Of a stretch of 64,000 nt of DNA, positions 2,217-23,983 are shown one piece after another. The DNA comes from an uncultured Candidatus Saccharibacteria bacterium. Its GTDB lineage: Bacteria > Patescibacteriota > Minisyncoccia > Phycocordibacterales > JACOZG01. Below the pieces are notes generated by a model. The model ran no database searches. It saw only the letters and a program-made list of their open reading frames with translations, and had not been told where the DNA came from. The stretch is from positions 20,418 to 84,417 of the forward strand of contig CAYNPK010000002.1 in assembly GCA_964399075.1 (NCBI GenBank). The letters run 5' to 3'. Made by a program: the position numbers and the translations under genes. Positions within the stretch are counted from its first letter, which is position 1. Each line of letters begins with the position of its first letter.

Positions 2217-2945
2217 ATGAACAAACTTCGTTTTTGCTTAAACAAAAAGCTTGATGAGTGCTTGGCCGGAGAATTTCTTAATGTGTCTGGAGGGGGGATA
2301 GATTTCGGCAAGGGGATTATTAAAATACATCCGCAACTGAAACCAGTTAAATCTCTACAAGATGCTATTCAGAAAGAAAAAGCTATTAGGATTTATTTTA
2401 ATCACTACTATCAAATTCATCGAGAAGAGATGGTTCGTAAGTTAAAGCTTGTGCGAAACTCTTGGAGTAAGAAAGAGCAGAAATATGTTGCGATAACTGA
2501 AGATTTTTTCGGCGGTTTTCGATTTTCAAAAGGAAAATATATTGCCTATGCCTCTATTATTGACTGCAATCCTCGGTTTTTAGACTCAAAAACATTTCAG
2601 TTTTTTTATAAAAAATCACTCGCTGACGCTATTCAGACTATTGCCCACGAACTTCTTCATTTTATTTTCTTTGATTTTGTTGAAAAGAGATTAAAAAAGG
2701 AAACGAAACATTTATCAGAGAATCAATTGTGGGACCTGTCAGAAATATTTAATGTGATCGTGCTTAAATCTCTGTCATACAAAAATATTATTAATCAACA
2801 ATTAGTAACTCCTTATCCTGATCACCAGCCTTATCTTCCTCAATTTGAAAAAGCGTATAAAAATTCTAAAAACGCCGAAGAATTTATTAGACGGGGTATA
2901 AGTATTATAAACACAAAAAATAGCGAGACGAGGCTGATAAACTAA
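2217..2945 (+). CDS. HExxH metallopeptidase-like protein, family A (ImmA/IrrE-like motif IAHELLHFIFFDF)
   Basis: Clear paralog of 5388..6038 (CNPRFLDSKTFQFFYKKS / IAHELLHF / LWDLSEIFNVI). Likely start is ATG 2217 (MNKLRF), not 2082. Confidence 0.6.
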   Translation: MNKLRFCLNKKLDECLAGEFLNVSGGGIDFGKGIIKIHPQLKPVKSLQDAIQKEKAIRIYFNHYYQIHREEMVRKLKLVRNSWSKKEQKYVAITEDFFGGFRFSKGKYIAYASIIDCNPRFLDSKTFQFFYKKSLADAIQTIAHELLHFIFFDFVEKRLKKETKHLSENQLWDLSEIFNVIVLKSLSYKNIINQQLVTPYPDHQPYLPQFEKAYKNSKNAEEFIRRGISIINTKNSETRLIN

Positions 2946-2969
2946 AAGAGGATTGTAATGGTATTTGAT

Positions 2970-2997
2970 TTGACAGGTGGGGTAAATTATTTATACT
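2970..2997 (+). promoter_or_regulatory. sigma70-like promoter TTGACA-16-TATACT upstream of rSAM gene
   Basis: TTGACA at 2970..2975 and TATACT at 2992..2997. Followed by SD GGGGTGA 5 nt before ATG 3061. Confidence 0.35.
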
Positions 2998-3060
2998 GTT
3001 TTTAGACTGCCGAAACTACGTTGTTTTGGCTTTGGTCTCTGACAACTAACGGGGTGACAT

Positions 3061-4122
3061 ATGGAAGATTCAATCAGTACGGCGATAGTGAAACCAACAG
3101 ATGGTTTTTGTAACTTGGCTTGTTCCTATTGCTACATGCAGAAGGTCTGTACTCGGGGAAAAATTCGGGTCATGAGTGCGCACGTTCTTGAAAACCTAAC
3201 TGATTTCTTCTGTTCCGAATTGGAAGAAATTGAGTTCATCTGGCATGGCGGTGAACCTCTTTTGGCCGGAGTGGATTTCTATCAAAAGGTAGTTCAGTGT
3301 CAGGAAAGCTGGATCGCCTCTGGTAAGAAAATCGCGAACTTCGTTCAAACCAATGGGGTTTTGTTAAATGGCAGGTGGGCGGATTTCTTTTCCCAGAACG
3401 GCTTTGTGGTTGGGGTGAGTCTCGATGGTCCGGCCCGCGTTCACGATGCGACCAGACGTTTCAAGAGTGGCGGTAGTTCCTTGGTGGCAACTATCAATGG
3501 AATAGAGGTGGCCCGAAAAGCGGGCATCTTTAATGGGGTGATTTGTTGCGTAAGTTCTCACAATTGCGAATTAGCGGAAGAGACCTTTGATTTTCTCTGT
3601 TCCCTGGGGATTAAGAGTATAAAATTTCTCAGGGTCAAGGGGGAATTTGAGGACAGCGTCAACCAAGGTCAATATGTTCGTTTTCTTACGGCCGTCTTAA
3701 GAAGGTGGCTGGAGGTCGATGATCCGGAGATTGAAATTAGAGACATCAAAAGTCTGATAGACATAGCCTTGGGGGGCAATTTCAGAGAATGTGTCTACAT
3801 GGGAAGGTGTGATAAATTCGTTACCGTTTACGGAGACGGATCTATTTACGCCTGTGATAATTTGCCCAAGGTTGATCGATTCTGCTTCGGCAATGTGGTC
3901 CAGACGAGAAAGGAGGTGTTGCTTGGACCAAAACTCCAAAACTTTCTTGCGATGATTGATGAACGTAAGAAGAGTTGCTCGTCTTGTTTTTGGTTTGAGA
4001 CCTGTCGCGGCGGTTGCGCCTATCGGTACCTACAAGAAGAAAAGGAGGAAAATCAATGTGAAGACTTGAAAGATTTGTTTGGCACTGTTCGTGATGTACT
4101 TAAAAGGCACCAGATGGTCTAG
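3061..4122 (+). CDS. radical SAM / SPASM-domain peptide maturase (rSAM no.1; AnSME/ranthipeptide-maturase-like)
   Basis: CNLACSYC (C-x3-C-x2-C) and GGEPLL. C-terminal auxiliary-cluster Cys motif CSSCFWFETCRGGCAYRY. Confidence 0.85.
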   Translation: MEDSISTAIVKPTDGFCNLACSYCYMQKVCTRGKIRVMSAHVLENLTDFFCSELEEIEFIWHGGEPLLAGVDFYQKVVQCQESWIASGKKIANFVQTNGVLLNGRWADFFSQNGFVVGVSLDGPARVHDATRRFKSGGSSLVATINGIEVARKAGIFNGVICCVSSHNCELAEETFDFLCSLGIKSIKFLRVKGEFEDSVNQGQYVRFLTAVLRRWLEVDDPEIEIRDIKSLIDIALGGNFRECVYMGRCDKFVTVYGDGSIYACDNLPKVDRFCFGNVVQTRKEVLLGPKLQNFLAMIDERKKSCSSCFWFETCRGGCAYRYLQEEKEENQCEDLKDLFGTVRDVLKRHQMV

Positions 4123-4157
4123 GTGCCAACTACTCTCTTTCGAGAAGGATTGGTGCT

Positions 4158-4298
4158 ATGAAAAAACGTGAATCTAAACTGAAAGTCCCCCGTGTCTTGC
4201 AGAAGGCTCGGCAAGTTGCCAAGTCTTTTGCGTCGAATTCGAGTTCGGGTTATACCAAGGGGCCTTGGGATCAGGGTCACTGGGCAAACCGAAAGTAA
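4158..4298 (+). CDS. 46-aa basic peptide (K/R-rich leader-like N-terminus, C-terminal GYTKGPWDQGHW); candidate rSAM substrate
   Basis: ATG 35 nt after the rSAM stop, with GAGAAGGA RBS 9 nt upstream. Sequence MKKRESKLKVPRVLQKARQVAKSFASNSSSGYTKGPWDQGHWANRK. An intrinsic terminator follows. Not in ORF track (<60 aa). Confidence 0.4.
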   Translation: MKKRESKLKVPRVLQKARQVAKSFASNSSSGYTKGPWDQGHWANRK

Positions 4299-4336
4299 GA
4301 GCGCGTATGATTATCGCGCAGGAAACTCAAACCAAA

Positions 4337-4370
4337 CGAGTAGTCTATCGGACTACTCGTTTTTATTTTT
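4337..4370 (+). terminator. rho-independent terminator (CGAGTAGTC-loop-GACTACTCG + T-run)
   Basis: Perfect 9-bp stem followed by TTTTTATTTTT. Closes the rSAM no.1 peptide operon and is convergent with the 4363..5247 gene. Confidence 0.5.
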
Positions 4371-5247
4371 GAATGTGTCCTTTTAGAACTTCGATTAGCG
4401 ATTCGAGGTAGGCATTATCAAGAGGAATTTTACCTTCCGTATACTTCTTAGACCAACCATACATGTGATAAGCACATATTTTTCTTGTTTGTGAAAAATC
4501 TAAAATGTTTTCAGTTTTTGCCAATCGTTCGTTTGTAATTTTTACCACCTCTATGCCAAGATATTTCTCTGCTAAATATCCTTCTGGTATAAATGAACTG
4601 ATTATTAGTTCTTCTAAAACAAGATAAGTGTTTTTTGTGCCATAGTTAACTAGATTAATTATCTCTGAATTTTTTTCTGTTACTTTTTTTATTTTTTCCC
4701 AAAGTTGATGATTTTTCTTCAATATCAAATGGAAAAATTCATGAGCCAATATCCCAATAGAAAATTTATCAGGAATAATGTTGTCAACTGGGCACTCCAA
4801 AACTATACTACTTCTATCCGGAGACCAAGAAAACCAAGCCGACAAATTATCATAAGGACTAATCACCAGATTAATTTGAATATCTTCGATCGAGAGATTA
4901 TCCATGCCCGCAAGCGAAAGAGCATCAGCAATCACCAGGTCCAATGTCTGTAAATTATCTTGATAGTATTTGGAAAGTAGTTCGAGTTTTTTTAGAGCAG
5001 TAAGCCAAAATTTATCAAACTCTTGCTCAAAAGGAGCGATGGCTTTTCTAAATTCGGATAACTTATCTTGCCCAACCATCTCTTCAAGGCTAGACCAAAA
5101 AGTCTCGTCATTTTCGGTAGCCAGAAAGAGTTCAATATTTTGAACATCCTCTGTTTTTAATAGATCTTTGATTGTTTGTTCCTTTTTAATATCAACCAAA
5201 AAGTGCAAAAAGTTGACATTTTTTGAAATACTAAAATTTAATGACAT
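4363..5247 (-). CDS. HExxH metallopeptidase-like protein, family B (ILAHEFFHLILKKNH)
   Basis: 294-aa ORF with a single HEXXH. The 5' UTR contains GGAGGA and derives from the N-terminal coding sequence of the 8545..9363-type gene. Confidence 0.55.
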   Translation of the reverse strand: MSLNFSISKNVNFLHFLVDIKKEQTIKDLLKTEDVQNIELFLATENDETFWSSLEEMVGQDKLSEFRKAIAPFEQEFDKFWLTALKKLELLSKYYQDNLQTLDLVIADALSLAGMDNLSIEDIQINLVISPYDNLSAWFSWSPDRSSIVLECPVDNIIPDKFSIGILAHEFFHLILKKNHQLWEKIKKVTEKNSEIINLVNYGTKNTYLVLEELIISSFIPEGYLAEKYLGIEVVKITNERLAKTENILDFSQTRKICAYHMYGWSKKYTEGKIPLDNAYLESLIEVLKGHIQK

Positions 5248-5387: not shown

Positions 5388-6038
5388 CTAGTTATTAATA
5401 TATCTAAGGTATTCCAAGCTTGTTTTTACAAAATTTACAACATTTGGTTCTTTTGTCCAAATCCTTTTTATTTCTTCCAACTTATTTTTCAGATCAGGGT
5501 AAAATAGAAGTTCTTCTGCTCCGATAGATTTTTTAATTGATGGAAGATTAAGAAAAATCACATTAAATATTTCGGATAATTCCCACAAATTATTGTCATT
5601 CTCAATTTTTAAATCACCACAAAAATCATAAAAGGCAAAGTGGGTCAGTTCGTGGGCGATAACTTCTTTTCTCATGTCATGCGAACGTTTGTAATAAACT
5701 TGGAAACTTTTATTCTCTAGATAGCGTGGATTGCAATTAAAGATAGACAAGTAACAAGTATAATTTTTTTTGCTGTAATCTTGGCCGAAATATTTCTGTA
5801 ATTCTAAAAATAAAGATTCTTTTATTTCTCTAAAACATAGCTCGGTATCCTCAAGAGTATTTTTCAAACTATCTTGATTCGCAGTATAAAAATTATCTAT
5901 ATATTCAATATAGTTTTCTTTAGTTATGTCCGGATGATCATCACGTATCTTCTTACCAAAATCAGCGCCACCAACAATAGCATCACAAAAAGCCAAATAT
6001 ACTTCTTTATCTAATTGTTTATTGAGCAGGGTGTTCAT
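5388..6038 (-). CDS. HExxH metallopeptidase-like protein, family A paralog (IAHELTHFAFYDF)
   Basis: Homologous to 2217..2945. Its 3' end (5388..5485) is duplicated at 12788..12950. Confidence 0.6.
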   Translation of the reverse strand: MNTLLNKQLDKEVYLAFCDAIVGGADFGKKIRDDHPDITKENYIEYIDNFYTANQDSLKNTLEDTELCFREIKESLFLELQKYFGQDYSKKNYTCYLSIFNCNPRYLENKSFQVYYKRSHDMRKEVIAHELTHFAFYDFCGDLKIENDNNLWELSEIFNVIFLNLPSIKKSIGAEELLFYPDLKNKLEEIKRIWTKEPNVVNFVKTSLEYLRYINN

Positions 6039-6792
6039 TGCTCAAGTATCTTTTCCATGCTTTTTCCGCTTCGGTCGGGCTTATGCCGTATATTTCTTGA
6101 AAAATATCACTATTCTCATTTTTTGTTTTGAATCTATTGGTATTCTGATAAAGAGTTTTAAATTTTTCTTTACCATATTGTTCAATCAAGAATTTTGTAA
6201 ACGACCCAACAAAACAGTAGTAATAAAGAGCGTGATCGTCATCCAGCTCTTTCCATTTTGCGTGATCCATCATTGAATCTACTGGGGGCAGGAGCCCTTT
6301 ATTTGAAGCCTCATAAGCGAGTTTGTCGTGGTCTTCTCCATGCCAGCCGTGGCCAACCATATATTCTGCCAATCCTTCTTGAAAAAAAGCAATTGAAAGT
6401 CCCCACGGTAAGGATAATAAATGTGTATCTTCATGTTCTCCAATTGGTTTAATGTCTTTTGTATACAAAACATGCACAATAAAATCTTTCCAAATGGCTT
6501 GAGCATACCAATCATCACCCATTAATTTTTTCTTTGTTTTCAGATCAGGATAAAAATAATAAGTGATTTTTCTTTCTGGAGATAGAATTTCTAAAAATTC
6601 AATGATTTTTTTGAAAGCTCTTCCCTGTGTTTCTGAAATTTTTGTAATTTCTTTTTCCGCGATTGTTTTAGGTAAATAGTAAAAAATATAGTGTTCAGTT
6701 TCATGTTTGAGCCAAGAGATGTCATTTTTGAAATCCTCTTTGTACGTTGGGAGATTTTGGGTAATTTCAGGTGTGCTCATAATATTAAACAT
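6019..6792 (-). CDS. HEDTH-motif metallopeptidase-like protein (family H)
   Basis: 257-aa ORF with GEHEDTHLLSL followed by EGLAEYMVGHGWHGEDHD. Overlaps 5388..6038 by 20 nt, so probably operonic. Confidence 0.5.
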   Translation of the reverse strand: MFNIMSTPEITQNLPTYKEDFKNDISWLKHETEHYIFYYLPKTIAEKEITKISETQGRAFKKIIEFLEILSPERKITYYFYPDLKTKKKLMGDDWYAQAIWKDFIVHVLYTKDIKPIGEHEDTHLLSLPWGLSIAFFQEGLAEYMVGHGWHGEDHDKLAYEASNKGLLPPVDSMMDHAKWKELDDDHALYYYCFVGSFTKFLIEQYGKEKFKTLYQNTNRFKTKNENSDIFQEIYGISPTEAEKAWKRYLSNEHPAQ

Positions 6793-6832: not shown

Positions 6833-8143
6833 TTAGGAGTTGTACTCAAGAAACAACAAACCTTCGTTTAGAGTGGCGATTAGCTTGCGTTGACAGAACC
6901 TCTTTTCGAATCCTTTCTCTCCGTTTTCCACGATCGAGTCATGAATGCACCCACCGCCACATATTGGCAAATAGGGACATTTCTCTTCTACACACTTGTC
7001 TGTTCGAGAAAAATTCTCAAAACGAACATCTTGTGTATATGAGGTGGGAAAATCGGAAACGTGACCGAAATCGAAAGCGGGCCGTCCAACCGTACAGAAG
7101 CATTTTTGAAGTGCTCCATTCGGCTGAAGTACTGCCGAATGCTTTGCGATTGCCACGCACCATGGCCCCACAAGAAACTCGTCAGGTACAGCAAACCCAC
7201 ATTCTTTAGCGACACGCCAAGCAGCTACAGCTTTTTCGGCGGTCATTACTTCGGCCAAGGCTTTCGTGGTAGTGCCAAGAGATGGAACAACAAGACCTAG
7301 ACTTAAATGAATCTTGTTACCATAGCCAAGCTTTGCCAAGAAGCGTATAAGATCTGGCAACGATTCAGCGGTTTCTGTATCGAGAGAGAGTCTCAAGTTG
7401 ATCTTTGGCACGTATCCACCATCGAGCAACATTCTCACATTCGTGATAATCCTATCGAAAGTGGGTTGTTTGTCGTGGCCAACTCTACGGGTGTCATGCA
7501 ATTCTCTCGGACCGTCCAGGGTAATTTGCACTCGCCGTAAATCGTATCGTTTGAGTGCGATTGCCGTATTAGCGTCGAGAAGCAAGCCGTTAGTAGTGAT
7601 CTCGGTCCAATATTCTATTCCTTTCTTTTCAGTAAGCAACTTGATTCTTGTTAGGGCTTCTTTCGCCAAGTGTTTCACCAGAAGAGGTTCTCCTCCAAAT
7701 AAAACGCACTTCAGGGAAGCAACCTCTGGATTGGCTTCAAGGTATTGGTCAAGCCAGTGAACAGACTGACAAAGAACCGCCTCCGTCATCAATCCCAGTC
7801 GTCTTACTCCACGCTCGAAGCAATAGTGACAGTTAAGTTGACACTTCATGGTTGGCAGGAGATGCAATGTGAAGAGTTTTGCCTGTTCATTCCTTGTGTG
7901 GCGAAAGAAGTTACGATACTCGCGGAACTCGTCTTTGTCTTCTGGAACAACAAATCCATTATTGCCAGAAAGAGTTTCGATGGAATCATGGCTAGGCAAT
8001 GTTTGATCATGAAGCCACTTATCCAAAGATTCAATTGTTTTGCCATCAAGCATCGCGACTGCCCCAGTGAGATAATTCTTCACCAGAACATTCCCATCGG
8101 CAAAAGGGTAACGAACCGTAAATGCACTCCATTTGTACCTCAT
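6833..8143 (-). CDS. radical SAM / SPASM-domain peptide maturase (rSAM no.2)
   Basis: CQLNCHYC, FGGEPLL, and C-terminal CVEEKCPYLPICGGGCIHDS. Start is probably ATG 8143 (MRYKWSAF); the track uses GTG 8206. Confidence 0.85.
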   Translation of the reverse strand: MRYKWSAFTVRYPFADGNVLVKNYLTGAVAMLDGKTIESLDKWLHDQTLPSHDSIETLSGNNGFVVPEDKDEFREYRNFFRHTRNEQAKLFTLHLLPTMKCQLNCHYCFERGVRRLGLMTEAVLCQSVHWLDQYLEANPEVASLKCVLFGGEPLLVKHLAKEALTRIKLLTEKKGIEYWTEITTNGLLLDANTAIALKRYDLRRVQITLDGPRELHDTRRVGHDKQPTFDRIITNVRMLLDGGYVPKINLRLSLDTETAESLPDLIRFLAKLGYGNKIHLSLGLVVPSLGTTTKALAEVMTAEKAVAAWRVAKECGFAVPDEFLVGPWCVAIAKHSAVLQPNGALQKCFCTVGRPAFDFGHVSDFPTSYTQDVRFENFSRTDKCVEEKCPYLPICGGGCIHDSIVENGEKGFEKRFCQRKLIATLNEGLLFLEYNS

Positions 8144-8215
8144 GGTAGGACACATCCTTTCTAAAAAAATGTCCCGCAAGCTACACGCCTGCAGGACATC
8201 ATGCACTGCGACTCA

Positions 8216-8356
8216 CTAGTAGCCACAAGTGTCTTTGCCCAACCTGACCGGAGTGCGAAGGTCTTGGTTACCTGCTTTGAGCAGGATAACACCAGAGCTT
8301 TTCACACTAGCCGATCTTACAGGCCGAGTTGCCGGTTTGTCGTTCTTGGTAACCAT
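8216..8356 (-). CDS. 46-aa basic peptide upstream of rSAM no.2; candidate precursor
   Basis: ATG at 8356 with AGGAGG 8 nt upstream. Sequence MVTKNDKPATRPVRSASVKSSGVILLKAGNQDLRTPVRLGKDTCGY. Stop lies about 10 nt before the rSAM ORF. Same length and character as 4158..4298. Confidence 0.4.
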   Translation of the reverse strand: MVTKNDKPATRPVRSASVKSSGVILLKAGNQDLRTPVRLGKDTCGY

Positions 8357-8544: not shown

Positions 8545-9363
8545 TCACCCCATCTTTTCTTCCAGCAGCTTCTTTGTTTCATTGGGGTGACACATCCAGA
8601 AGTCTTCTCCCTCTATGTCGGTTGGCTCGAAGGCGATGATAAGCGGTTTGTGACCCAGTGTTTTATAGGCCTCAATAAAAGCTGGAAGAAACACTTCTCT
8701 GGTGAAGGAGATTTCTTTGTGATCAAGCATAAAGTTTTCAAACAAGACGCCGTTTCTAATGAATAATGATAGGAAGGGAGTATAGTATTCATTGGCGGTC
8801 ACGCCATGATTTTTAAACCACTTAGACGCATCGTAAAAAGAATCTCTGCGAAGTAATTTGTAAGTTTTTCTAAAAAGTCCGTGATGGAATCCTACCAGAG
8901 ATTGGTTCCATAAAGTTTTAACTTTTGAAATCTTTTTTCCTACAAATTCATTAAATTCAATGGCGTTTATTCTTTCTATTTTCATCCCCCCCTTCTTCCC
9001 TCTGCCTTGGAAAAAACTCAACTTGCCCAGGGAGTGTTTCCAGTCGTTGTTAGAAGTAAATTTATCATGCCGATATTCCCAAAACAGGAGCTTAGTATCT
9101 TCCAACGCATCAGCAATGCTGACAAATCTTCGGATTTCGTAATTGGGAGTAATCACCTGACGGAAAATTACCGCCCGCGGGTCTTTCTTGAAGGGCTCGG
9201 GGATGTCGTTCTTGAGAATTTTCAGCACTTTTTTCTCAAGTTCTTTGTCTTTTCTCCGCTCTTTTAACTCCCCAAGAGCCACCGACAGGGGAGTATAAAT
9301 AGTTTCTTCAAACAACTTCCTATTCGAGATGATTTTCGGAATATCCTCCAGTCTGGGAACCAT
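8545..9363 (-). CDS. hypothetical protein, family C (no recognisable motif)
   Basis: 272-aa ORF. Its 3'-terminal sequence recurs as truncated remnants at 15030..15112 and 16628..16660. Confidence 0.5.
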   Translation of the reverse strand: MVPRLEDIPKIISNRKLFEETIYTPLSVALGELKERRKDKELEKKVLKILKNDIPEPFKKDPRAVIFRQVITPNYEIRRFVSIADALEDTKLLFWEYRHDKFTSNNDWKHSLGKLSFFQGRGKKGGMKIERINAIEFNEFVGKKISKVKTLWNQSLVGFHHGLFRKTYKLLRRDSFYDASKWFKNHGVTANEYYTPFLSLFIRNGVLFENFMLDHKEISFTREVFLPAFIEAYKTLGHKPLIIAFEPTDIEGEDFWMCHPNETKKLLEEKMG

Positions 9364-16254: not shown

Positions 16255-16282
16255 AATATAACTTAAAATTAATAAAAAAAGG

Positions 16283-16497: not shown

Positions 16498-16627
16498 GCT
16501 TATCACCTCCTTTCACTGACCTAAAAAAGTACTACCTTGCCTAGGCACTGTGTCTAGGCAACTGGAAGTTAGTATAGCATGAGGATTGTAATTGTAAAGA
16601 ACTTGTGTTTATAACCAAAACTAATCT

Positions 16628-16715
16628 CACCTCATCTTTTCTTCCACAAACTTCTTAGTTTCATTCTCAAGATTCTACCACAGAATAGCTAAAATTAGAA
16701 GGGGGAGTGCAAAGA
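16628..16715 (-). promoter_or_regulatory. promoter module copy 5 (TGTGGTAGAAT) fused directly to a 3'-terminal remnant of a family-C gene
   Basis: ctcaagattctaccacagaatagctaaaattagaaggggg next to catcttttcttccacaaacttcttagtttcatt. Confidence 0.4.
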
Positions 16716-16888
16716 TTTGGTGAGATGACAGCCTTGTTATTTTTTGAATCGGCGTGAGGGGCTGTTGAATAATCAAGAATAAAGTACTAAGTAAACTGCA
16801 AAGGATGTCCTTGATATTTTGCTACCCAGATGTTAATTTGTAAATAGTGTATGGTTGATTCAATTGGTCTTTAAAAAAGGAAGAAGTT

Positions 16889-18199
16889 ATGAAATTATCG
16901 CGTTTTAATGTTTGGTCGCTTTGTGACCATGGTCTCATTATCTTTAACACTCTTACTTGCGCCTTGTCAGTTTTCGAAGGGGATTACATTGAAAAGGTGT
17001 TCCGGGCTCTCAAGAATGAGGACATTGACAGTATTCCAGGAGAATTTTTGCTGGCAATGTCTGAGGATGGTTATTTAGTTGAGGACGAACTCGATGAACT
17101 TGGATTTATCAGAGATGCTTGCTGTGAAAGACGGTCTAAAACGGACGAGTACTCCCTGTGTGTGATTCTTACAATGGATTGCAACTTGGATTGCGCCTAT
17201 TGCTTCCAGAAGCATTCCAAAGAAAATCTATCACAGGTTGAAGTTGCCAAGGTTTTGAACATGTTTCGAGGGATAGCAACCAAGGCAAAGAGGATTGAAG
17301 TTGACTGGTTTGGTGGCGAGCCACTTCGCTCGTTCAGTGTTCTGAAATCCATGAATGATCAGCTTATGGCTATTGCTCAAGCTTCGGGTGTAGATTATCA
17401 GCATTCAATTACTACTAATGGTTACTACCTAAGCCATAAAGTAATCACCTATCTAGCCAAAACTCCTCTCTCGATTCTCACGATCACTCTGGATGGTCCC
17501 GCAGAAACTCACGATCGTAGTCGGCCAACAAAAAGTGGTCAGCCAACATTCCTTAAGATTCTCGAGAATGTTCAGATGGCGATTAAGGCTGGTCTGAATA
17601 TTTCTATTCGGGTTAACATTACTACTCTGAATGTTGATCGGGTTCATGAGTTGTATGATGTCTTGGAGTCGCGTGGTCTCAAGAACAAAGTTGAGGTTAA
17701 TCTCCAGGCAGTGGTTTCTTCTGACGTTAGATCGTGTGAGGAATACTGTCTTTCTGGACACGACTTCGCTTGTCGATCAATGAGGATATACAAGTGGGCA
17801 GCACAAAAAGGATGGGTGGTTTTTCCTCCCACGGAAAAATTGAGGGCTTTGGGATTTTGTGTTGGAGAGTACCCGAATCGCTTCATCACTGATCTCCATG
17901 GGAACTTGTATCGATGTAGTCAAATGACGGACGACGAGATGGTCGGCGCCCTAGATGACGATGGCTCAATCATTCTTCGGGAGACGGAGAATGAACTTTG
18001 GATTAACAAAGATCCTCTCAAGTTTCCTGAATGTCAAGGATGCTCAATCTTACCCATTTGCATGGGCGGTTGTAATCTTAAGCGGCGCGCCGGCAAAAAG
18101 TCAGTAGACTACTGTCTCGACTGGAAACATGATTTACCCGGCTTGCTTGAGGTCTTAGTGCTGAATGAGAGAAATATCGCCCTCTCCCAGCTGGATTGA
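16889..18199 (+). CDS. radical SAM / SPASM-domain peptide maturase (rSAM no.4)
   Basis: CNLDCAYC, FGGEPL, and C-terminal CQGCSILPICMGGCNLKR. RBS AAGGAAGAAG before ATG. Confidence 0.85.
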   Translation: MKLSRFNVWSLCDHGLIIFNTLTCALSVFEGDYIEKVFRALKNEDIDSIPGEFLLAMSEDGYLVEDELDELGFIRDACCERRSKTDEYSLCVILTMDCNLDCAYCFQKHSKENLSQVEVAKVLNMFRGIATKAKRIEVDWFGGEPLRSFSVLKSMNDQLMAIAQASGVDYQHSITTNGYYLSHKVITYLAKTPLSILTITLDGPAETHDRSRPTKSGQPTFLKILENVQMAIKAGLNISIRVNITTLNVDRVHELYDVLESRGLKNKVEVNLQAVVSSDVRSCEEYCLSGHDFACRSMRIYKWAAQKGWVVFPPTEKLRALGFCVGEYPNRFITDLHGNLYRCSQMTDDEMVGALDDDGSIILRETENELWINKDPLKFPECQGCSILPICMGGCNLKRRAGKKSVDYCLDWKHDLPGLLEVLVLNERNIALSQLD

Positions 18200-18250
18200 A
18201 GAATGGTTGCTTTGTTGGTACTCTTAAGTGTTGGAAAGGAGGTGATGAAC

Positions 18251-18331
18251 ATGAAGCGCGTTAAAAAAGCACGGGCGACAAAAGTAGTTACGCCACGTGC
18301 GACGTTCTCATCCTGCTGCAGAAACAAGTGA
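18251..18331 (+). CDS. 26-aa basic peptide with C-terminal SSCC; candidate precursor
   Basis: GGAAAGGAGGTG 8 nt before ATG 18251. Sequence MKRVKKARATKVVTPRATFSSCCRNK. A strong terminator follows. Confidence 0.4.
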   Translation: MKRVKKARATKVVTPRATFSSCCRNK

Positions 18332-18347
18332 TTTTGCAGCGCAGCCA

Positions 18348-18382
18348 AGAGGCACAAGCTAGAAAGCTTGTGCCTCTTTTTC
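18348..18382. terminator. rho-independent terminator (13-bp perfect stem AGAGGCACAAGCT/AGCTTGTGCCTCT, loop AGAA, TTTTTC)
   Basis: Closes rSAM no.4 and the peptide gene. Also sits at the 3' end of the convergent gene 18359..18808. Confidence 0.6.
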
Positions 18383-18808
18383 ATGTTTCTCGTCTCTTCT
18401 TCCCAAGAACGCCGCTACGACATTGTCGACAAATTCTTCAAGTTTGTTTAAGTAAAGTTCGTGATTTTGTCCGAATTTTTTATGATTTTCCAATATTAAA
18501 TCCTCACTGAATTTGTCGTAGTCATTTATTAAAACATGGACTAATTCGTGAACTAAGGTATGTTCTTCGTCACACCAAGGATTCCACGTTAATTGTATGG
18601 TGGCGATTTTCTTTTGAGAATTAGCTTCGAAGCCGCCACTTTGTCGCCATCCATTTTCACGCCAAAAATCCACAATCTTGAGATCTAATTTCCAATCGGC
18701 CATGCCCATTTTCTCCTGCCACTTCCTGAGCAATTTTTCCAGTTCGGGCACAGCTAAACCCCTTTTCTTGTTTTCAAATCCGTAAAATATTTTACGATCT
18801 CCTTCCAT
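18359..18808 (-). CDS. HExxH metallopeptidase-like protein, family E (HTLVHELVHVLIND; SprT/DUF45-like)
   Basis: 149-aa ORF. Confidence 0.55.
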   Translation of the reverse strand: MEGDRKIFYGFENKKRGLAVPELEKLLRKWQEKMGMADWKLDLKIVDFWRENGWRQSGGFEANSQKKIATIQLTWNPWCDEEHTLVHELVHVLINDYDKFSEDLILENHKKFGQNHELYLNKLEEFVDNVVAAFLGRRDEKHEKEAQAF

Positions 18809-18870
18809 AAATTTAAGTATAACAACTAAGCAAATAATTATGCAACAATTATTCTCGAACTATCTTCCAG

Positions 18871-18909
18871 ATGGCTAAAATTAGAAGAGGGGGTTATTGA
18901 ATTATATAA
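18871..18909 (-). promoter_or_regulatory. promoter module copy 6
   Basis: atggctaaaattagaagagggggttattgaattatataa lies upstream of minus-strand ATG 18808. Confidence 0.35.
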
Positions 18910-19471
18910 TATTTCCGTTTCGTTGATAAAAAAAGCGATGTAGGTGCCAATATTTTAAATTGCCAGATTTGGTTTGACCGTAACCCTCTTCAGTGGATTT
19001 AAAATACAACTTTAATTTTATTTGACTTAACAAATCCTGAATTTCTTGGTAGTCAAAATTTATTAGAGCTCGCTCATCCTTAGTCCATTCATCATTAGGA
19101 CCAAGGAGGGAGAAAGCGAAAATTCCTTTGTCGATTAGGCCATCTGTTGCTTTCTGAATAATCTCAAGAATCTGTTCTCGCGTGCTTAAAAAAAATAGGG
19201 AGTTGTTGGTGATAATTACTTGATAGGTCCTAGGGTTGATAATGAAGTTTGTCATATCGTCCTCTTGAATTCTAATTGTTGGATTTGTTTTCGTCGCTCT
19301 TAGATTTGCCAAGGTGGCTGGATTTTTATCCACGGCGTCAACTTGGTAACCCAATTGTGCCAGTTGAAGCGAGTCTTCTCCATTACCACAACCTAAGTCA
19401 AGTATCTTGCCAGGCTCTCGATGGGGAATAATTTTGTCACTTATTAATTTGTGCAAAATAAAGCTGGGCAT
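18902..19471 (-). CDS. class I SAM-dependent methyltransferase
   Basis: ILDLGCGNGEDS motif I and AVD motif II. Confidence 0.65.
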   Translation of the reverse strand: MPSFILHKLISDKIIPHREPGKILDLGCGNGEDSLQLAQLGYQVDAVDKNPATLANLRATKTNPTIRIQEDDMTNFIINPRTYQVIITNNSLFFLSTREQILEIIQKATDGLIDKGIFAFSLLGPNDEWTKDERALINFDYQEIQDLLSQIKLKLYFKSTEEGYGQTKSGNLKYWHLHRFFYQRNGNII

Positions 19472-19494
19472 TTAATAATTTATTTTAACATATT

Positions 19495-20076
19495 CTATAA
19501 ATCGCTGAACCATTTAGCAAACTGAATCTCGGCATCACCCCAAATATCCAGAAATTTTTGATAATCCTCGTTTCTGATTTCACCCATAGATTTACCCCCT
19601 GGGTTGTGTGGATGATCTGGAATGAACAATCTGTCAATAAAACTGCCCTCATCAAGAGAAAGTGTTTCTGTGATATGGCCACCGCACTCACTCTCAAAGA
19701 TTTTTGGTTCACCTCCGGGCTCACAATATGCTAAAGAATTTTTTATCTTCGCTTTACGGTTTTTCAGTTTTTTTAATACGTTAAAAAACAGATCGGCTCC
19801 TACTTGTTTATCTACATAAAATACAAAAGGTCCTGGAAAACCTCCTAGTTCTTCTATGAAAAAGCCGGAATCCATTTTTATAACTGGCTGGTTCAATAAG
19901 TTGGCGCCATATTTTGCGGAATACGCAGCAACCTCGCTATTGTCCTCAGATTGTATCTCGGGAATCCATGGTTTTTGTATTTCTACATCAATATCATAAC
20001 CAGTTATGGCTTGTTCGAAGCTCTTCTTTTTCTTCTCATTTCCCGTTAGTAGAATTATTTTTTTTGTCATAATCAA
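19495..20076 (-). CDS. Ham1/ITPase-family non-canonical purine NTP pyrophosphatase
   Basis: IILLTGNEKKKKSFE N-terminal motif and FIPDHPHNPGGKSMGEI. Confidence 0.55.
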   Translation of the reverse strand: MIMTKKIILLTGNEKKKKSFEQAITGYDIDVEIQKPWIPEIQSEDNSEVAAYSAKYGANLLNQPVIKMDSGFFIEELGGFPGPFVFYVDKQVGADLFFNVLKKLKNRKAKIKNSLAYCEPGGEPKIFESECGGHITETLSLDEGSFIDRLFIPDHPHNPGGKSMGEIRNEDYQKFLDIWGDAEIQFAKWFSDL

Positions 20077-20681
20077 TAGGCGTTTAACATCGAGCTTAAT
20101 TTTTTTAAATGACCCGCTGAGCCATTAAATATCCAATCCGAATGTTTTGTGAGTCGATTGCATAGCTGATTAAATTTCTTAGCGTCTCCTATTAGCTTTA
20201 AATTATAATTTTTAATTACATCCAACAATTCAGCTTTATTTTTTTCTAAATTTTTTGCGTTAGACATTTTTTCTACCTCTACATAAGCGATTGACCCAGC
20301 TTTGACTAGTGTCAATGTGATATTATTTCCCAAATCAAAATTAAAATTTTCACGTTCGGTAACTTTTGAAGCAAGTCCAAGTAGCGAAAACGTTTTCGCT
20401 AGATCAACGAATCGCTCCTTTGTAATTTTTCGAGAATCTTCGACCCGATCGTGAGTGTGGAAATCTCCTCTTTTTATAACAATTTCGGCTTCATTGTTTG
20501 AGTTTATGCGAACTCTAATATCAACATTTACTTTGTTTATTTCTCCCAAAAACATAACCGACAATCTTTTTGTCTTGGATATTTGTTTATTTGTTTTATT
20601 TAAACCACTAAGTAGTTTTCTAAATTGAGTAGGAGTGACTTCTGCCCTCAATTCAAGTTCTATGTTGTTATTATTTGACAT
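20073..20681 (-). CDS. CYTH-domain protein (paralog)
   Basis: MSNNNNIELELRAEV start. Homologous to 9442..10056. Confidence 0.6.
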   Translation of the reverse strand: MSNNNNIELELRAEVTPTQFRKLLSGLNKTNKQISKTKRLSVMFLGEINKVNVDIRVRINSNNEAEIVIKRGDFHTHDRVEDSRKITKERFVDLAKTFSLLGLASKVTERENFNFDLGNNITLTLVKAGSIAYVEVEKMSNAKNLEKNKAELLDVIKNYNLKLIGDAKKFNQLCNRLTKHSDWIFNGSAGHLKKLSSMLNAY

Positions 20682-20682
20682 G

Positions 20683-21618
20683 TTATAAATTTGAGAAAAA
20701 TAGATATTTGTTATACATATGCGAATAACTAATCGTTCTTTTTTGCTCCGGATTTTCTAATCGGTCGCAAAAGAAAGTGGCCGTATCCGATAGTGTAGCA
20801 AACTTGATCCATGAATATAAATTATCATCTTTGAAAATTTTATTTTTAGCAACAGAATTATAACCTTCAAGAAAGACATCAAACAGCTTAGTGTCTGGCT
20901 CTCTTGAGCCATCTGGGAATGACCACTCAACAACGCCAAGTGCCAAATCTTTAATGCTTGGACCGACGCAACTCCAATCAAAATCGATAACTCCACTTAT
21001 AATCAAGTCTGTTTGGAAAAAGACGTTACCAACTCGGTAATCATTATGAATCAGGCCACTGGGAACATTTTGACTTTTAGCAAAGGTTATACTTTCTTTA
21101 ACCTGATCGACAAACATTTTACCACCATTGAAATTCTCCACAAACAAATTCTCGTTCTTTAGCACGCGCTCCAACTCAACAAAAATATTTCTACTTCTAA
21201 CAGAAGAAGATTTAAATGCTTGTCCGATATTTGCAATATTTCCCAACGTAGCGCCCGCTGTATTTGCTTGTTCTATTGTTGGCAGATGATCTTTGTCTAT
21301 TTTGGCGTGATAACCATCTATATAATCAAACATAACCGCAACTTCGACATCTTCGCTAGATGCGTAAAAATTATCTTTTTTTGTTTTTATCCATTTTGGA
21401 ACAGGAAAACCGTTATCAGACAAATGTTGTATGGCCTCATATTCAAACCGAACATCTTGTATTTGCAACTTCTTGCTAAGACGCAAAATTTTCTTATCTT
21501 TAGCGCCGATAATATATACTTGGTTGTCTCCCGATTCGCGACCCAGTTCTCTTGGCTCGGTTTCCGCAATATCATACTGGGCTAGTATTTTTGTAAGCGT
21601 ATCCATTTTATTCAACAA
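20683..21618 (-). CDS. aminoglycoside/choline/homoserine-kinase-type phosphotransferase (APH fold)
   Basis: HNDYRVGN catalytic loop and IDFDW. Confidence 0.65.
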   Translation of the reverse strand: MLNKMDTLTKILAQYDIAETEPRELGRESGDNQVYIIGAKDKKILRLSKKLQIQDVRFEYEAIQHLSDNGFPVPKWIKTKKDNFYASSEDVEVAVMFDYIDGYHAKIDKDHLPTIEQANTAGATLGNIANIGQAFKSSSVRSRNIFVELERVLKNENLFVENFNGGKMFVDQVKESITFAKSQNVPSGLIHNDYRVGNVFFQTDLIISGVIDFDWSCVGPSIKDLALGVVEWSFPDGSREPDTKLFDVFLEGYNSVAKNKIFKDDNLYSWIKFATLSDTATFFCDRLENPEQKRTISYSHMYNKYLFFSNL

Positions 21619-21713
21619 AAGAGGCCTTGAGTTTTGATTCTTTTTTATTCATATATATTCTGTTGTTTGCCTCATTATAACCCATAAAAAGGGGATGGTG
21701 TATAATTAAAGAT

Positions 21714-22148
21714 ATGAATGATTCTGCTGAAAATAAAACTCATTTAGTCCTAGTTAACGGAATAGTTTTTAATGGAGATAAAGTTTTACTATCTCAACGT
21801 AGTTGGGATGAGCCACATGAGCCGGGAAAGTGGACTATCCCCGGAGGGAAAGTCGAGAGAACGAAAGATGAAGAGTTTGATATTATTGAAAAAACGCTGA
21901 AAAGTGAGATTTTGGAAGAAACTGGCATAGAGATAGATGGTGAGATAAAACTAATTGCTAATAATACTTTTCTTAGATCCACTGGTCAGCATGTAATCGC
22001 TCTCGTGTTCAAATGTAGATACAAAAATGGCGAAGCAACGCCTCTGGAGGATACCATTGATTGCAAGTGGGCAACTTTAGAAGAAGTTAAAGAGATGGAG
22101 TTTTCTCCCAATGTTAAAGAATATATTTTGAGAGCTTATTCGGATTAA
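21714..22148 (+). CDS. NUDIX hydrolase
   Basis: GGKVERTKDEEFDIIEKTLKSEILEETGI, Nudix-box-like. Confidence 0.6.
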   Translation: MNDSAENKTHLVLVNGIVFNGDKVLLSQRSWDEPHEPGKWTIPGGKVERTKDEEFDIIEKTLKSEILEETGIEIDGEIKLIANNTFLRSTGQHVIALVFKCRYKNGEATPLEDTIDCKWATLEEVKEMEFSPNVKEYILRAYSD

Positions 22149-22164
22149 CTTTTTAATTTTAGCA

Positions 22165-22782
22165 ATGAGACCCAAAGTAAACATCAAATATAATCGATTT
22201 TTAGATCCGATTTTTATTTTTTATTGCCAAAATTCACCAGAAACCAAGAATCGTGGTTGGCACGAATGGAGCCCACCGTCTAAAGAAGTGCTAGAAAAAA
22301 GAATTGAAAATTATAGGAGTGAGTGGCAAAAAAATGAGACAAAAATTCTAAATGCCATGTGTAAGTCTCTTGGTTTAAATTTCAAGCGAAACATTATTGA
22401 CGTTCACATCGTAAGCGGAAACCAAAGGCAATTTAGCCATCCTTTAGTAATAAAAAGTGGCTTTTCACCAAGTGACTTTGTTGATGTTTTAACCCACGAA
22501 TTGATCCACATCCTGCTAACAGATAATACTGATAATATACCAACCCTAAAAAATTTATTTCCCACTTACTTCGCCGAAAGTTATCTAACCCTCAATCATA
22601 TTCTTGTTCAGGCGGTGTTAAAATATATTTATTTAGATATCTTAAACGAACCCAAAAAACTTAAGGCAAATATTGCCTCGTCAAAAAAACATAGCACACC
22701 TGATTATTCTAGAGCTTGGGAAATTGTGGAAAAAGAGGGATACCTAAATATAATCCATCAATTCAAAATTTCCTTGAAATAA
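22165..22782 (+). CDS. HExxH metallopeptidase-like protein, family F (LTHELIHILLTD)
   Basis: 205-aa ORF. Confidence 0.5.
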   Translation: MRPKVNIKYNRFLDPIFIFYCQNSPETKNRGWHEWSPPSKEVLEKRIENYRSEWQKNETKILNAMCKSLGLNFKRNIIDVHIVSGNQRQFSHPLVIKSGFSPSDFVDVLTHELIHILLTDNTDNIPTLKNLFPTYFAESYLTLNHILVQAVLKYIYLDILNEPKKLKANIASSKKHSTPDYSRAWEIVEKEGYLNIIHQFKISLK

Positions 22783-23363
22783 TTTCTGTAGGGGAAATTG
22801 CCTTCACTATACTGTCCGAAATTATGCCCAGAATCTATCTTGCTTGTGTAGGACATTAATTCATCATCAGACATTAATTTTATATTTAAATCATTTGATA
22901 CCTCTAGGATCTTTTTTTCGGCCACGTTTTTATTTTTAATAGAATTTAACATGATTTCTAGCTCCACGTGGAATCCCCAGGATTCAGTATATTTTAGGGC
23001 AATTTCTACTTCGTGGTATAAATAATTAGTTCTAAACTGGTATACGCGATGGATATCATTTGGTTTAAGTCGCTTAAAAAAATCTATGACCTTAGTTGTT
23101 TCATTAGGTAAAATGGTAAACTCTATTTCCTCGAAATGGCTCTGTACTCCAATTCTGCCTGGTTTTAATGAAACCTTTGCTTTGTTTGTATTTTGATTAT
23201 GGACAACCTTGATTACTTTATCGCTCCAGATAAAAAGGAAGTGTCTTTGCTGTCATCTCCAAGCAATTTAGCCTCATTCGATAGATATTTCTTTAATTCC
23301 AGAAATTTGTCCTCGGATATGCATGCCCTAAATTCAAGTTCAATGTTGTTATTATTTGACATA
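22758..23363 (-). pseudogene. degraded CYTH-domain paralog (frameshifted)
   Basis: N-terminus MSNNNNIELEFRACISEDKFLELKKY... (ATG 23363) stops early. The C-terminal piece KNKNVAEKKILEVSNDLNIKL in ORF 22758..22967 matches the CYTH C-terminus of 20073..20681. Confidence 0.45.
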
Positions 23364-23368
23364 TTATT

Positions 23369-23983
23369 TTACCCCTGTTTTTCTTTAATCAAACTCAACA
23401 CATCTTTGAATTTACCACCTTTTTGATAAATATCCCAAATAATTTTTCTCCATTCTTGCTCTTTTTCGGAATCATGACCTTTGTCAAAGCTAAACATGCG
23501 AAAACTTTTATGATCGTTTAGAATCACGGGAATTGCTTCTTTGATGTCTCTGTCGAGTTCAACTGGTTGGAAATAGTGGCAAAGTTCGTGCATGATGACT
23601 CTCTGTCGTTCGACCGGATTTTTGAAAAACGGAGCTGTAAACCATTTCTCCGTTGTTCCTTCTGAAAAGTCATAAGGAAAAATATCAAGACGTGTTAGAA
23701 AGCAGGTTAAATCCGGTGTAGAGATTTCCATTTCATAAAATGATCCCAGATGTTGATAAAAGTTTTGTTCGGTCTTTTCCCAAGTCTTTTGAATGTGAGA
23801 AATGAGTTGTTTGGCCAAGCCATCTTGTTCTGGAAGAATTTGGATATTTCGAATTTCATCCGCAATCATTTTCACCACTTCAGGAGACTTCTTACCCTCG
23901 ACGTATTTATGAAAAATTGTTTCTTCAATTGTCTTGTCGTACTTGAATAGAATCATTGTGTTTGTTGTGGATATTATAGACAA
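23369..23983 (-). CDS. HExxH metallopeptidase-like protein, family G (IMHELCHYFQP)
   Basis: 204-aa ORF. Confidence 0.5.
   Translation of the reverse strand: MSIISTTNTMILFKYDKTIEETIFHKYVEGKKSPEVVKMIADEIRNIQILPEQDGLAKQLISHIQKTWEKTEQNFYQHLGSFYEMEISTPDLTCFLTRLDIFPYDFSEGTTEKWFTAPFFKNPVERQRVIMHELCHYFQPVELDRDIKEAIPVILNDHKSFRMFSFDKGHDSEKEQEWRKIIWDIYQKGGKFKDVLSLIKEKQG

Follow-up and report, generated by a model that had tools for sequence, protein, structure and literature searches.

In the sactipeptide and ranthipeptide clusters (SCIFF/ScfB, CefB, Clo7bot and TIGR04463) and in triceptide clusters, one or two radical S-adenosylmethionine (rSAM)/SPASM enzymes are encoded beside short precursors in which a conserved leader precedes a C-terminal core that is Cys-rich or aromatic. 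The rSAM clusters for peptides that are made on the ribosome and modified after translation (RiPPs) may also contain αKG-HExxH enzymes, which were long mis-annotated as peptidases, lie beside or are fused with rSAM/SPASM cyclophane synthases, and are Fe(II)/2-oxoglutarate hydroxylases acting on Asp, His, Pro, Gln or Phe of the rSAM-modified peptides (PMC12636437, PMC13060819). The present analysis concerns a stretch of 64,000 nucleotides from an uncultured Candidatus Saccharibacteria bacterium (contig CAYNPK010000002.1, positions 20,418 to 84,417; hereafter the window), in which eight genes, H1 to H8, encode small proteins with an HExxH motif, and six of these genes lie in two composite rSAM clusters together with four genes for short precursor peptides. 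With a probability of about one half, these proteins may be new zincin-like peptidases, restricted to the candidate phyla radiation (CPR, the Patescibacteria), that process RiPP precursors.

The HExxH genes of the first cluster are H1 (2217-2945, forward strand; 242 residues, HELLH144) and its family A paralog H3 (5388-6038, reverse; 216 residues, HELTH129), H2 (4363-5247, reverse; 294 residues, HEFFH169; H2 family) and H4 (6019-6780, reverse; 253 residues, HEDTH120; Peptidase_MA_2-like); those of the second are H5 (12996-13622, reverse; 208 residues, HETIH138; H5 family) and H6 (18359-18808, reverse; 149 residues, HELVH87). Two more, H7 (22165-22782, forward; 205 residues, HELIH111), from a large family of its own, and H8 (23369-23956, reverse; 195 residues, HELCH), lie beyond the clusters. 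The preliminary description of this DNA had named the same eight open reading frames (ORFs), and all were recovered at its coordinates and with its motifs, two of them with shortened starts: the ORF of H4 had been listed as 6019-6792, and the gene call of 253 residues starts at 6780; that of H8 had been listed as 23369-23983, and its start is the ATG at 23956, which gives the same 195-residue product as the public record. H4 has a second motif, HETEH30, but its homologs keep HEDTH120, so HETEH30 is not the site. The density of these genes, which had been called unusual, is so: HExxH occurs in 8 of the 36 ORF products encoded in 1-26.2 kb of the window, whereas 5000 residue shuffles of the same proteins gave a mean of 0.31 such products and at most 3. 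Across the remaining 38 kb the motif is present in 2 of 49 products, an M50 site-2 protease and FtsH. The eight-gene observation is thus confirmed.

The first cluster (1.9-8.4 kb) consists of preA, H1, rs3061 and preB on the forward strand, converging with preD, a hairpin, rs6833, H4, H3 and H2 on the reverse strand. The second (12.3-18.8 kb) comprises rs13887, preC, H5 and a SET gene on the reverse strand, plus rs16889 converging with H6. Because they are encoded inside two rSAM clusters and beside four precursor genes, the six HExxH proteins are most likely peptide-cutting enzymes. The earlier placement of the HExxH genes beside rSAM cassettes or nucleotide-enzyme genes was correct; the four precursor ORFs, which we regard as the key to the region, had not been listed.

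The first precursor gene, preA (1987-2130, forward), encodes a Cys-rich peptide of 47 residues, MSESEILIVPDSKTHAKVVENIDLKDAVDARPCDCAACSSCRCTPCK, with six Cys in its last 17 residues, and is preceded by the Shine-Dalgarno sequence AAGGGAGGTGA 7 nt upstream; it is without annotation in the public record and lies beneath an over-extended SET ORF. The product of preD (8216-8356, reverse; 46 residues, MVTKNDKPATRPVRSASVKSSGVILLKAGNQDLRTPVRLGKDTCGY) ends in GKDTCGY, and the gene, a called one, has a perfect Shine-Dalgarno site, AAAGGAGGAAA, and is followed by the hairpin, rs6833, H4 and H3. Between rs13887 and H5 lies preC (13701-13859, reverse; 52 residues, MEALAEMMTTPGISRDLPVQNLRARSLSSDGYCQPDPDDCPNPPDCDCPDCL; Shine-Dalgarno sequence AAAGGAGAG), whose product has a Cys/Asp/Pro-rich core. 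The fourth, preB (4158-4298, forward; 46 residues, MKKRESKLKVPRVLQKARQVAKSFASNSSSGYTKGPWDQGHWANRK), is a tentative candidate with YTK, WDQ and HWA motifs, located after rs3061 and convergent with H2; its Shine-Dalgarno site is weaker, and it is a called gene in public records. Three of the four precursor ORFs are independently called genes, and all four have a Shine-Dalgarno site. A scan of preA to preD against NCBIfam returned no known peptide family at E ≤ 10. When the GC-rich intergenic stretches were scanned for Rfam families and tRNAs, no RNA gene was found in 1-26 kb; these stretches encode the precursors. To judge from sequence, the four precursor families are new, as is the organisation of such clusters in a CPR genome. 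A dedicated precursor was not found near rs16889 and H6, which may share preC.

The rSAM genes of the clusters encode four radical SAM/SPASM proteins. Among these, rs3061 (3061-4122, forward; 353 residues) resembles the anaerobic sulfatase maturase anSME and cyclophane synthases (TIGR03942, E = 3.6e-72, below cutoff; anSME structure 4k37 in the PDB, 6e-44; ChlB rSAM domain, 1.7e-21). Both rs6833 (6833-8143, reverse; 436 residues in the gene call) and rs16889 (16889-18199, forward; 436 residues) align over their full length, including an N-terminal extension, with RiPP maturases (TIGR04463, CefB, Clo7bot); the best models are TIGR04463 (2.9e-51) and CefB (1.3e-44) for the former, and TIGR04334 (1.5e-67) and TIGR04463 (2.6e-67) for the latter, all below cutoff. 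The fourth, rs13887 (13887-14915, reverse; 342 residues), has no N-terminal extension and matches Radical_SAM at 5.5e-12 and the SPASM model TIGR04085 at 6.7e-9. Overall, the four have the CxxxCxxC motif of rSAM enzymes, the Pfam Radical_SAM domain is found in them at 1e-12 to 1e-15, and alignment to SPASM maturases of the anSME and RiPP types is full-length; since all score below the curated cutoffs, the four represent new subfamilies. Three hairpins punctuate the clusters: a bidirectional terminator-like hairpin between preB and H2 (4334-4362; 13-pair stem, T runs on both strands), a hairpin with a T tract between preD and rs6833 (8168-8200, reverse; 14-pair stem with 7 GC pairs), which is a possible attenuator, and a terminator-like hairpin between rs16889 and H6 (18347-18378, forward; 14-pair stem).

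The pairing of precursor, HExxH and rSAM genes is not peculiar to the window, but recurs at loci of other genomes (given L numbers here). Homologs of preA with the near-invariant core CxC[TSA][AS]CxSCRCTPC[KR] lie beside an H1 homolog and an rSAM gene at 11 loci (L011, L013, L014, L015, L018, L019, L021, L022, L024, L025 and L117), and they do so in three gene orders: preA-H1 convergent with the rSAM gene, H1 convergent with rSAM-preA, and preA-rSAM-H1. Similarly, a metagenome scan with the H5 profile, from which 80 loci were kept, shows an rs13887-like gene adjacent in about 20; among the 64 loci with enough upstream sequence, at least 18 have a Cys/Asp-rich ORF of the preC type, with a '(V/I)TG(I/V)'-type leader, 60-130 bp upstream of the H5 homolog, and this placement holds whether the rSAM gene lies upstream or convergent downstream. 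The preD-rSAM-H4 cassette occurs in a second genome (L053), where the precursor (17601-17834) ends in ...RRMGKDGCGY. A WWE3 genome (L022) repeats the layout of the window with H1, an rs3061-like rSAM gene, a small Trp-rich ORF (WDQ) and a convergent H2-family gene. Furthermore, rs16889 (52% identity) and H6 (56%) recur as a convergent pair in L104 and L106, beside a preC-H5-rs13887 unit, so that the third and fourth cassettes of the window are probably one cluster.

Given that precursor genes directly adjoin the HExxH genes here and in many other genomes, the first of the functions offered in the preliminary description, that of leader peptidases, is plausibly the best fit. The near-invariance of the preA core (CxCxxCxxCxCxxC), together with an identity of 55-78% among family A proteins from different CPR lineages, points to a conserved physiological role for the product rather than to a hypervariable bacteriocin.

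A second small HExxH gene is found within 3 kb at 11 of the 44 family A loci and at 18 of the 80 H5 loci, and the families also co-occur without an rSAM gene. Several metagenomic loci (L057, L058, L060, L065 and L090-L093) have two H5 paralogs around an rSAM gene, H5 with family A, or H5 with an H4 homolog (59%); in light of such loci, multi-HExxH neighbourhoods are a recurring CPR feature, of which the window is an extreme case.

A co-occurrence of the HExxH genes with rSAM genes across genomes, for which a check had been proposed, held in part: the pairing recurs for each family, but most homologs of family A and H5 elsewhere are not beside an rSAM gene. In a genome scan with the family A profile, which yielded 44 loci, essentially all of them from Patescibacteria, an rSAM gene lies within 700 bp in 16; when the loci are confined to those with at least 1.5 kb of flank on each side, the same holds for 11 of 27 family A loci and 7 of 25 H5 loci. 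The closest homolog of H1 (75% identity) sits between glycosyltransferases and a NUDIX gene, orphan H5 homologs adjoin DnaJ, or DUF6624, SET and histidine-kinase genes, and H7 homologs, seen on a few short contigs, have a GNAT gene and a small acidic ORF as neighbours. In the window itself, H7 follows a NUDIX gene with no rSAM or precursor gene nearby, and H8 follows a transglutaminase-like gene with no cassette. Base composition differs as well: the eight H genes have 30-39% GC, as do the SET, CYTH, APH, NUDIX, Ham1, methyltransferase and HIT genes, versus 45-47% for the rSAM genes, 49-56% for the precursors and 43.7% for the rest of the window. The H genes are mostly without a visible Shine-Dalgarno site, and the precursors have strong ones. 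The link between HExxH genes and rSAM or precursor genes is thus frequent and family-specific, and, in view of the many orphans, the cassette-free H7 and H8 and the GC contrast, facultative.

These observations bear on an alternative that we consider unlikely, namely that the eight are general-purpose or otherwise unrelated small peptidases: an AT-rich variable island would have collected them along with rSAM cassettes and genes for nucleotide hydrolases, and no dedicated functional tie would connect them. The unrelated surroundings of most homologs, the isolation of H7 and H8 and the low GC content shared with the neighbouring SET, CYTH, NUDIX, APH, Ham1 and HIT genes would all be expected from such co-location, and the enrichment of other small HExxH genes extends as far as 3-10 kb from family members. 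However, the family-specific pairs (preA with family A, preC with H5, preD with H4, and the H6-rs16889 type) persist across differing surroundings and in rearranged orders, and a preC-type ORF, where present, always lies immediately upstream of the H5 gene.

The HExxH motif is well conserved among the homologs of these proteins. Family A has 189 homologs at 55-78% identity, all without a name, and the motif is present in 121 of 121; C117-N-P-R120, H144, the catalytic-type E145, H148, S175-E176 and Y200-P201 are invariant. H3 matches the hidden Markov model of this family at 8e-64 and retains CNPR, HELTH and SEIFN. As had been claimed, family A supplies two clear paralogs, H1 and H3 (33% identity, E = 6e-34), which are the only clear pair among the eight. 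For H5, 18 homologs were found at 41-50% identity, all 18 with the motif, along with 144 relatives in metagenomes; the invariant positions of the family are LTxYGxGGSY, H138, E139, H142, W157, K159 and E160, the last of these 18 residues past the second His. The H7 family is far larger, with 602 representative clusters (50% identity) at E ≤ 1e-3; HExxH occurs in 132 of 136 full-length members, and P93, H111, E112, H115, H145 and Y181 are invariant. Among homologs recovered from fetched loci, HExxH is kept in 6 of 6 for H2 (with family links in L017, L022, L032 and L045) and HEDTH in 6 of 6 for H4. The homologs of H6, at 49-56% identity and all beside H5/rSAM cassettes, have HE[LM]LH in 4 of 4; they came from the H5 loci, no relatives having been returned by viral-contig scans for H6 and H8 or by a metagenome scan for H6. 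Close homologs of H8 were not recovered, but one distant homolog (L050, 12361-13071; 25% identity, BLASTP 5.9e-6) retains HEIFH. Loss of the HExxH histidines was accordingly not seen for seven of the eight proteins, H8 being weakly tested by its one distant homolog.

All relatives found belong to the Patescibacteria/CPR, in agreement with the earlier suggestion of a CPR-specific family, though several families, rather than one, are essentially confined to this group. As far as profile and homolog searches indicate, these are new and undescribed families with no curated model. None of the eight proteins reached a curated threshold in Pfam, NCBIfam or PHROGs, and SprT, WLM, DUF45, M48, MtfA and DUF4157 were not listed at E ≤ 1 for any of them in the profile scans; SprT gave stray weak matches only, in a few family members. 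The sub-threshold matches are nonetheless all to metallopeptidase families, namely DUF5700, Peptidase_MA_2, DUF3267, DUF6782, M78, proabylysin and Spartan. The best hint for H1 is DUF3267 (E 0.05). H2 matches DUF5700 (PF18958) with 16.2 bits and E 0.007, short of the gathering threshold of 25 bits, and the C-terminal part of H4 matches Peptidase_MA_2 (PF13485) with 20.2 bits and E 5.7e-4, short of 32.4 bits; in H4, HEDTH is followed by FQEGLAEY, so that an HExxH...EGxAxY motif is present. Membership in ImmA/IrrE, SprT, DUF45, DUF4157, MtfA or M48, which had been offered as an option, is therefore not upheld: no curated threshold was reached, and the best match to Peptidase_M78 (PF06114) in the window, that of H6, has 10.3 bits and E 0.61 against a cutoff of 22 bits.

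The M78 similarity also carries a second alternative, in which the proteins would be self-protection or regulatory proteases, either anti-repressors of the ImmA/IrrE kind or degraders of the mature peptide that protect the producer. Besides H6, weak M78 matches occur in 2 of 67 H7-family members, and PprI is among the weak structural matches of H1. Yet the Pfam threshold for M78 is not reached, no Xre or helix-turn-helix (HTH) gene is present among the Pfam-scanned neighbours of the eight, and the conserved position right after a precursor gene is typical of biosynthetic genes and not of regulators. We therefore hold this explanation to be very unlikely.

The invariant C117-N-P-R120 loop of family A could be read in a further way, since it recalls the C-x-P-x-R formylglycine motif of sulfatases: the family A proteins might be substrates of an anSME-like rSAM enzyme, and rs3061 is indeed most similar to an anaerobic sulfatase maturase. 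We find this barely credible. The motif is CxPR and not CxPxR; it is invariant in all 121 proteins, of which most lack an rSAM neighbour and the others are usually accompanied by a maturase of the RiPP recognition element (RRE) type instead; and bona fide small precursors are present. By position, the loop lies 27 residues before HExxH, between strands, where M1 peptidases have the substrate-binding GxMEN.

AlphaFold2 models were built from the family alignments of H1 (pLDDT 94.2, pTM 0.90) and H5 (pLDDT 91.6, pTM 0.88). The two agree in the succession of their elements, which runs from an N-terminal strand with short helices through a long backing helix and then two or three strands to the HExxH helix (residues 135-158 in the H1 model and 129-152 in that of H5), followed by a helix with an invariant Glu and by two C-terminal helices. 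The predicted fold is zincin-like, a zincin/gluzincin core with additions. With H5 as query, the first 36 Foldseek hits are almost all zincins (M1 aminopeptidases, LTA4H, M61, ADAM/adamalysins, YbeY and an M48-like protein), the best having E 0.14 and a probability of 0.8; with H1, the leading matches, likewise not significant, are M1 aminopeptidases and selecase. Matches in BFVD are weak only, to SprT, M48, IrrE and 'peptidase' entries, and the H7-family profile weakly matches a snake-venom metalloproteinase, proabylysin and Spartan among PDB sequences. The structural comparison proposed in the preliminary description was thus successful as to the zincin-like models of H1 and H5, but not as to a significant match among solved structures; its term metallopeptidase-like is apt, given the conserved motif and the predicted folds.

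Profile comparison places several of the families in relation to one another. Homology between family A and the H7 family is shown by hhalign (95.8%, E 7.7e-9, over 86 columns covering the backing helix, strands and HExxH helix), and H5 aligns with H7 at 79% (E 1.6e-5, 137 columns). As single sequences against the H7 profile, H8 gives 61% over 172 columns and H2 gives 76% over 77 columns; H6 matches around the motif only, and hhalign returned no match for the single sequence of H4. To judge from these comparisons, a loose superfamily consists of A, H5, H7 and probably H8 and H2, and the Peptidase_MA_2-like H4 and the small zincin H6 stand apart. The eight genes are consequently not a local expansion of one gene: of the earlier statement that an expansion had taken place in several families, the several families remain, but there is no single-family amplification, at least four families (A with its distant relative H8, H5, H7 and H2), plus H4 and H6, having been gathered by two composite rSAM clusters.

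A zincin-like fold leaves room for chemistry other than hydrolysis, and the HExxH proteins might instead be tailoring enzymes, catalysing either Fe(II)/2-oxoglutarate hydroxylation of the αKG-HExxH type or a metal-dependent reaction of Cys residues in the Cys-rich cores. Cores of the preC type abound in Cys, Asp and Pro, and αKG-HExxH enzymes hydroxylate Asp and Pro; rs3061 resembles the rSAM domain of ChlB; the HExxH genes outnumber the precursors; and the αKG-HExxH profile TIGR04267 is the commonest weak NCBIfam match in the H7 family (5 of 67 members, best E 0.051). In the window, however, this profile is unmatched, its best score being that of H7 (E 0.2; 11.6 bits where the cutoff is 40; 29 residues aligned), and it is found in 0 of 18 H5 and 0 of 40 family A members. 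Nor does an αKG-HExxH structure appear among the top 50 Foldseek hits of the H1 and H5 models. Patescibacteria are mostly anaerobic fermenters without a tricarboxylic acid cycle, and an enzyme that needs O2 and 2-oxoglutarate is less likely given this physiology. Tailoring is thus, in our estimation, likewise an unlikely role.

The favoured reading, that the HExxH proteins are precursor-processing peptidases, can be put as follows. The eight would be small cytoplasmic zincin-like metalloenzymes with a presumed zinc site, built alike from a backing helix, a set of two or three strands, the helix that bears HExxH and a next helix with a conserved Glu or His. The rSAM/SPASM enzymes would cross-link the Cys-rich, Asp-rich or aromatic cores, and the HExxH proteins would then, if this order of steps is right, hydrolyse the precursor at a cleavage site that allows removal of the leader, possibly with further trimming, for which the aminopeptidase-like H4 may be responsible. 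Each HExxH family would be matched to its own precursor family, and H7 and H8 would belong to the same superfamily without being linked to a cassette in the window.

Several points weigh against this reading. No curated peptidase model is reached by any of the eight proteins, and the Foldseek search of the PDB gave no significant match to a solved structure for H1 or H5 (best E 0.14). The third metal ligand is putative, assigned by secondary-structure position to E176 in family A and E160 in H5 (both on the helix after the HExxH helix) and to the invariant H145 in H7. The αKG-HExxH enzymes combine a zincin-like fold and an rSAM RiPP cluster with oxygenase activity, so the fold is not proof of hydrolysis (PMC12636437). 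There are six HExxH genes in the clusters for four precursors, and no transporter gene is present in the clusters. Finally, where the flanks are long enough to tell, about 60-70% of the family A and H5 members lack both an adjacent rSAM gene and an adjacent recognisable precursor, and the GC content of the H genes, 30-39% versus 45-47%, suggests that they may have histories separate from those of the rSAM genes.

A broader interpretation is that the HExxH proteins form a Patescibacteria-wide superfamily (A, H5, H7, H2 and H8) which is the class-defining partner of several new RiPP precursor families, and whose chemistry is perhaps not plain leader removal but metal-dependent tailoring or, in the case of preD-rSAM-H4 with its C-terminal CGY, a cofactor release like that of mycofactocin. 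We regard this as improbable; if true, reduced-genome symbionts would possess conserved metabolites that derive from peptides and serve a physiological, not an antibiotic, function.

These findings matter in several respects. The Patescibacteria account for a large share of bacterial diversity, and in the window some 17 kb is given to two composite rSAM peptide-maturation clusters with four unannotated precursor families. These clusters are tied to zincin-like families that have no Pfam or NCBIfam model and comprise hundreds of sequence clusters, 602 in that of H7 alone, so that a sizeable block of CPR hypothetical proteins acquires a testable function. For genome mining, a precursor together with an HExxH gene can serve as a signature in CPR genomes, and for enzymology the proteins are compact candidates for leader peptidases, or else for new HExxH chemistry, in work on RiPPs.

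The neighbouring genes may be described more briefly. Two SET genes, paralogs with 67.5% identity, flank the clusters: one at 1276-1848 (reverse; 190 residues, Pfam SET 8e-16) and the other at 12306-12779 (reverse; 157 residues, 1.3e-13), downstream of H5. The first had appeared as an ORF of 285 residues reaching to 2133, which is over-extended by 95 codons: the alignment with the second paralog starts at M96, position 1848, and the extension is preA in antisense. For the same reason, a SET gene beside the H1 homologs of L011, L013 and L019, suggested by tblastn, was rejected as an antisense translation of preA. Near H5 homologs, SET genes are met with repeatedly, in many cases together with a HisKA/HATPase_c kinase, even where rSAM and precursor genes are lacking (L053, L145, L146, L117 and L136); their role might be the methylation of lysine in peptides or proteins.

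Nucleotide house-cleaning and signal enzymes are unusually concentrated between and after the clusters, at 9442-12102 and 15170-22148; they include two CYTH proteins, HIT, Ham1/ITPase, NUDIX, an APH-type kinase, a guanylate-kinase-like protein, a TehB-like methyltransferase and a PreA-like protein with DHO_dh and two [4Fe-4S] domains. NUDIX genes are also neighbours of an H1 homolog in L004-L006 and of an H7 homolog in L056. On three unrelated short contigs, a conserved small acidic ORF (...DHGDHSADSDADSxxTD...; L137, 1660-1845, L139, 1966-2127, and L141, 1477-1608, all reverse) converges with H7-family genes, and a GNAT acetyltransferase gene lies on the other side; this ORF, which is absent from the window, may represent a further HExxH-partnered peptide family. 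Three family-less proteins of 272, 113 and 165 residues (8545-9363, 24584-24925 and 24963-25460, all reverse) are scattered in the window, and their homologs are contiguous just downstream of an H5 homolog in L109 (6756-8508); homologs of the second of them are also found near H1 homologs in L016 and L117. Beyond the region, bacterial str/S10/spc ribosomal operons occupy 26-43 kb, and two ordinary housekeeping proteases are encoded, a Peptidase_M50 site-2 protease (26435-27079, forward; HEVSH) and FtsH/M41 (57186-59141, forward; HEIGH). The window also holds a tmRNA (51619-52011) with the tag ANSSDDSVVSPYFAPSYALA and a tRNA-Ile with anticodon TAT (UAU) at 59160-59233 (reverse), which is uncommon in bacteria.

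Comparison with the described systems shows in which respects the clusters depart from them. The window shares the general arrangement of sactipeptide, ranthipeptide and triceptide clusters, and preA, with six Cys in 47 residues, is like SCIFF. Unlike in those systems, the maturases score well below the cutoffs, no transporter is encoded, the hosts are Patescibacteria, and the maturases have as their constant companion not a C39, M16 or S8 protease but a small HExxH protein whose family is undescribed. The SCIFF models themselves do not fit: no precursor matched TIGR03973 in the NCBIfam scan (E ≤ 10), and TIGR03974 gave 74-93 bits against a cutoff of 425.

The mycofactocin (MftA/B/C/E) and PQQ (PqqA/E/F) pathways likewise pair an rSAM/SPASM enzyme with a short precursor, and in both a metal-dependent peptidase sets free the modified C-terminal piece. 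MftA ends in ...CGVY, which the conserved preD end, GKD(T/G)CGY, recalls; the comparison serves as a lead only. Taken with the rSAM/SPASM gene and the metallopeptidase-like gene, this end of preD gives a hint that the product may be a small molecule derived from the peptide and not a peptide. On the other hand, MftC and PqqE are not the best models for rs6833, no homologs of MftB/D/F or PqqB/C/D were seen, and the peptidases are unrelated, MftE being creatininase-like and PqqF belonging to M16.

With ImmA/IrrE (M78) and SprT/Spartan, the proteins share a small single-domain build with HExxH, and the invariant third His of H7 is reminiscent of SprT-type sites; the thresholds, however, are not reached (E 0.6 and weaker), and there is neither an HTH partner nor a DNA-repair context. 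The αKG-HExxH hydroxylases (TIGR04267/IPR026337; ChlH, BpmH, PflC and PesO) are alike in being zincin-like HExxH proteins of rSAM RiPP clusters that were once annotated as peptidases, but their profile is unmatched here, and the known enzymes use Fe, 2-oxoglutarate and O2; the known examples stem from aerobes, and in many of them the enzyme forms a fusion with the rSAM protein.

The best, though weak, fold and profile matches are to the gluzincins (selecase, proabylysin, the M1 domain and Peptidase_MA_2). No match is significant, and the HExxH proteins differ in their extra N- and C-terminal helices, in the invariant CNPR loop of family A, and in the spacing of the putative third ligand, which is 28 in family A, with a His at +30 in H7. 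In common with the gluzincins, the predicted HExxH helix follows a small sheet and a backing helix, and the next helix carries a conserved acidic or His residue; in H5, E160 lies 18 residues past the second His, and the FQEGLAEY that follows HEDTH in H4 resembles the NEGFA of M1.

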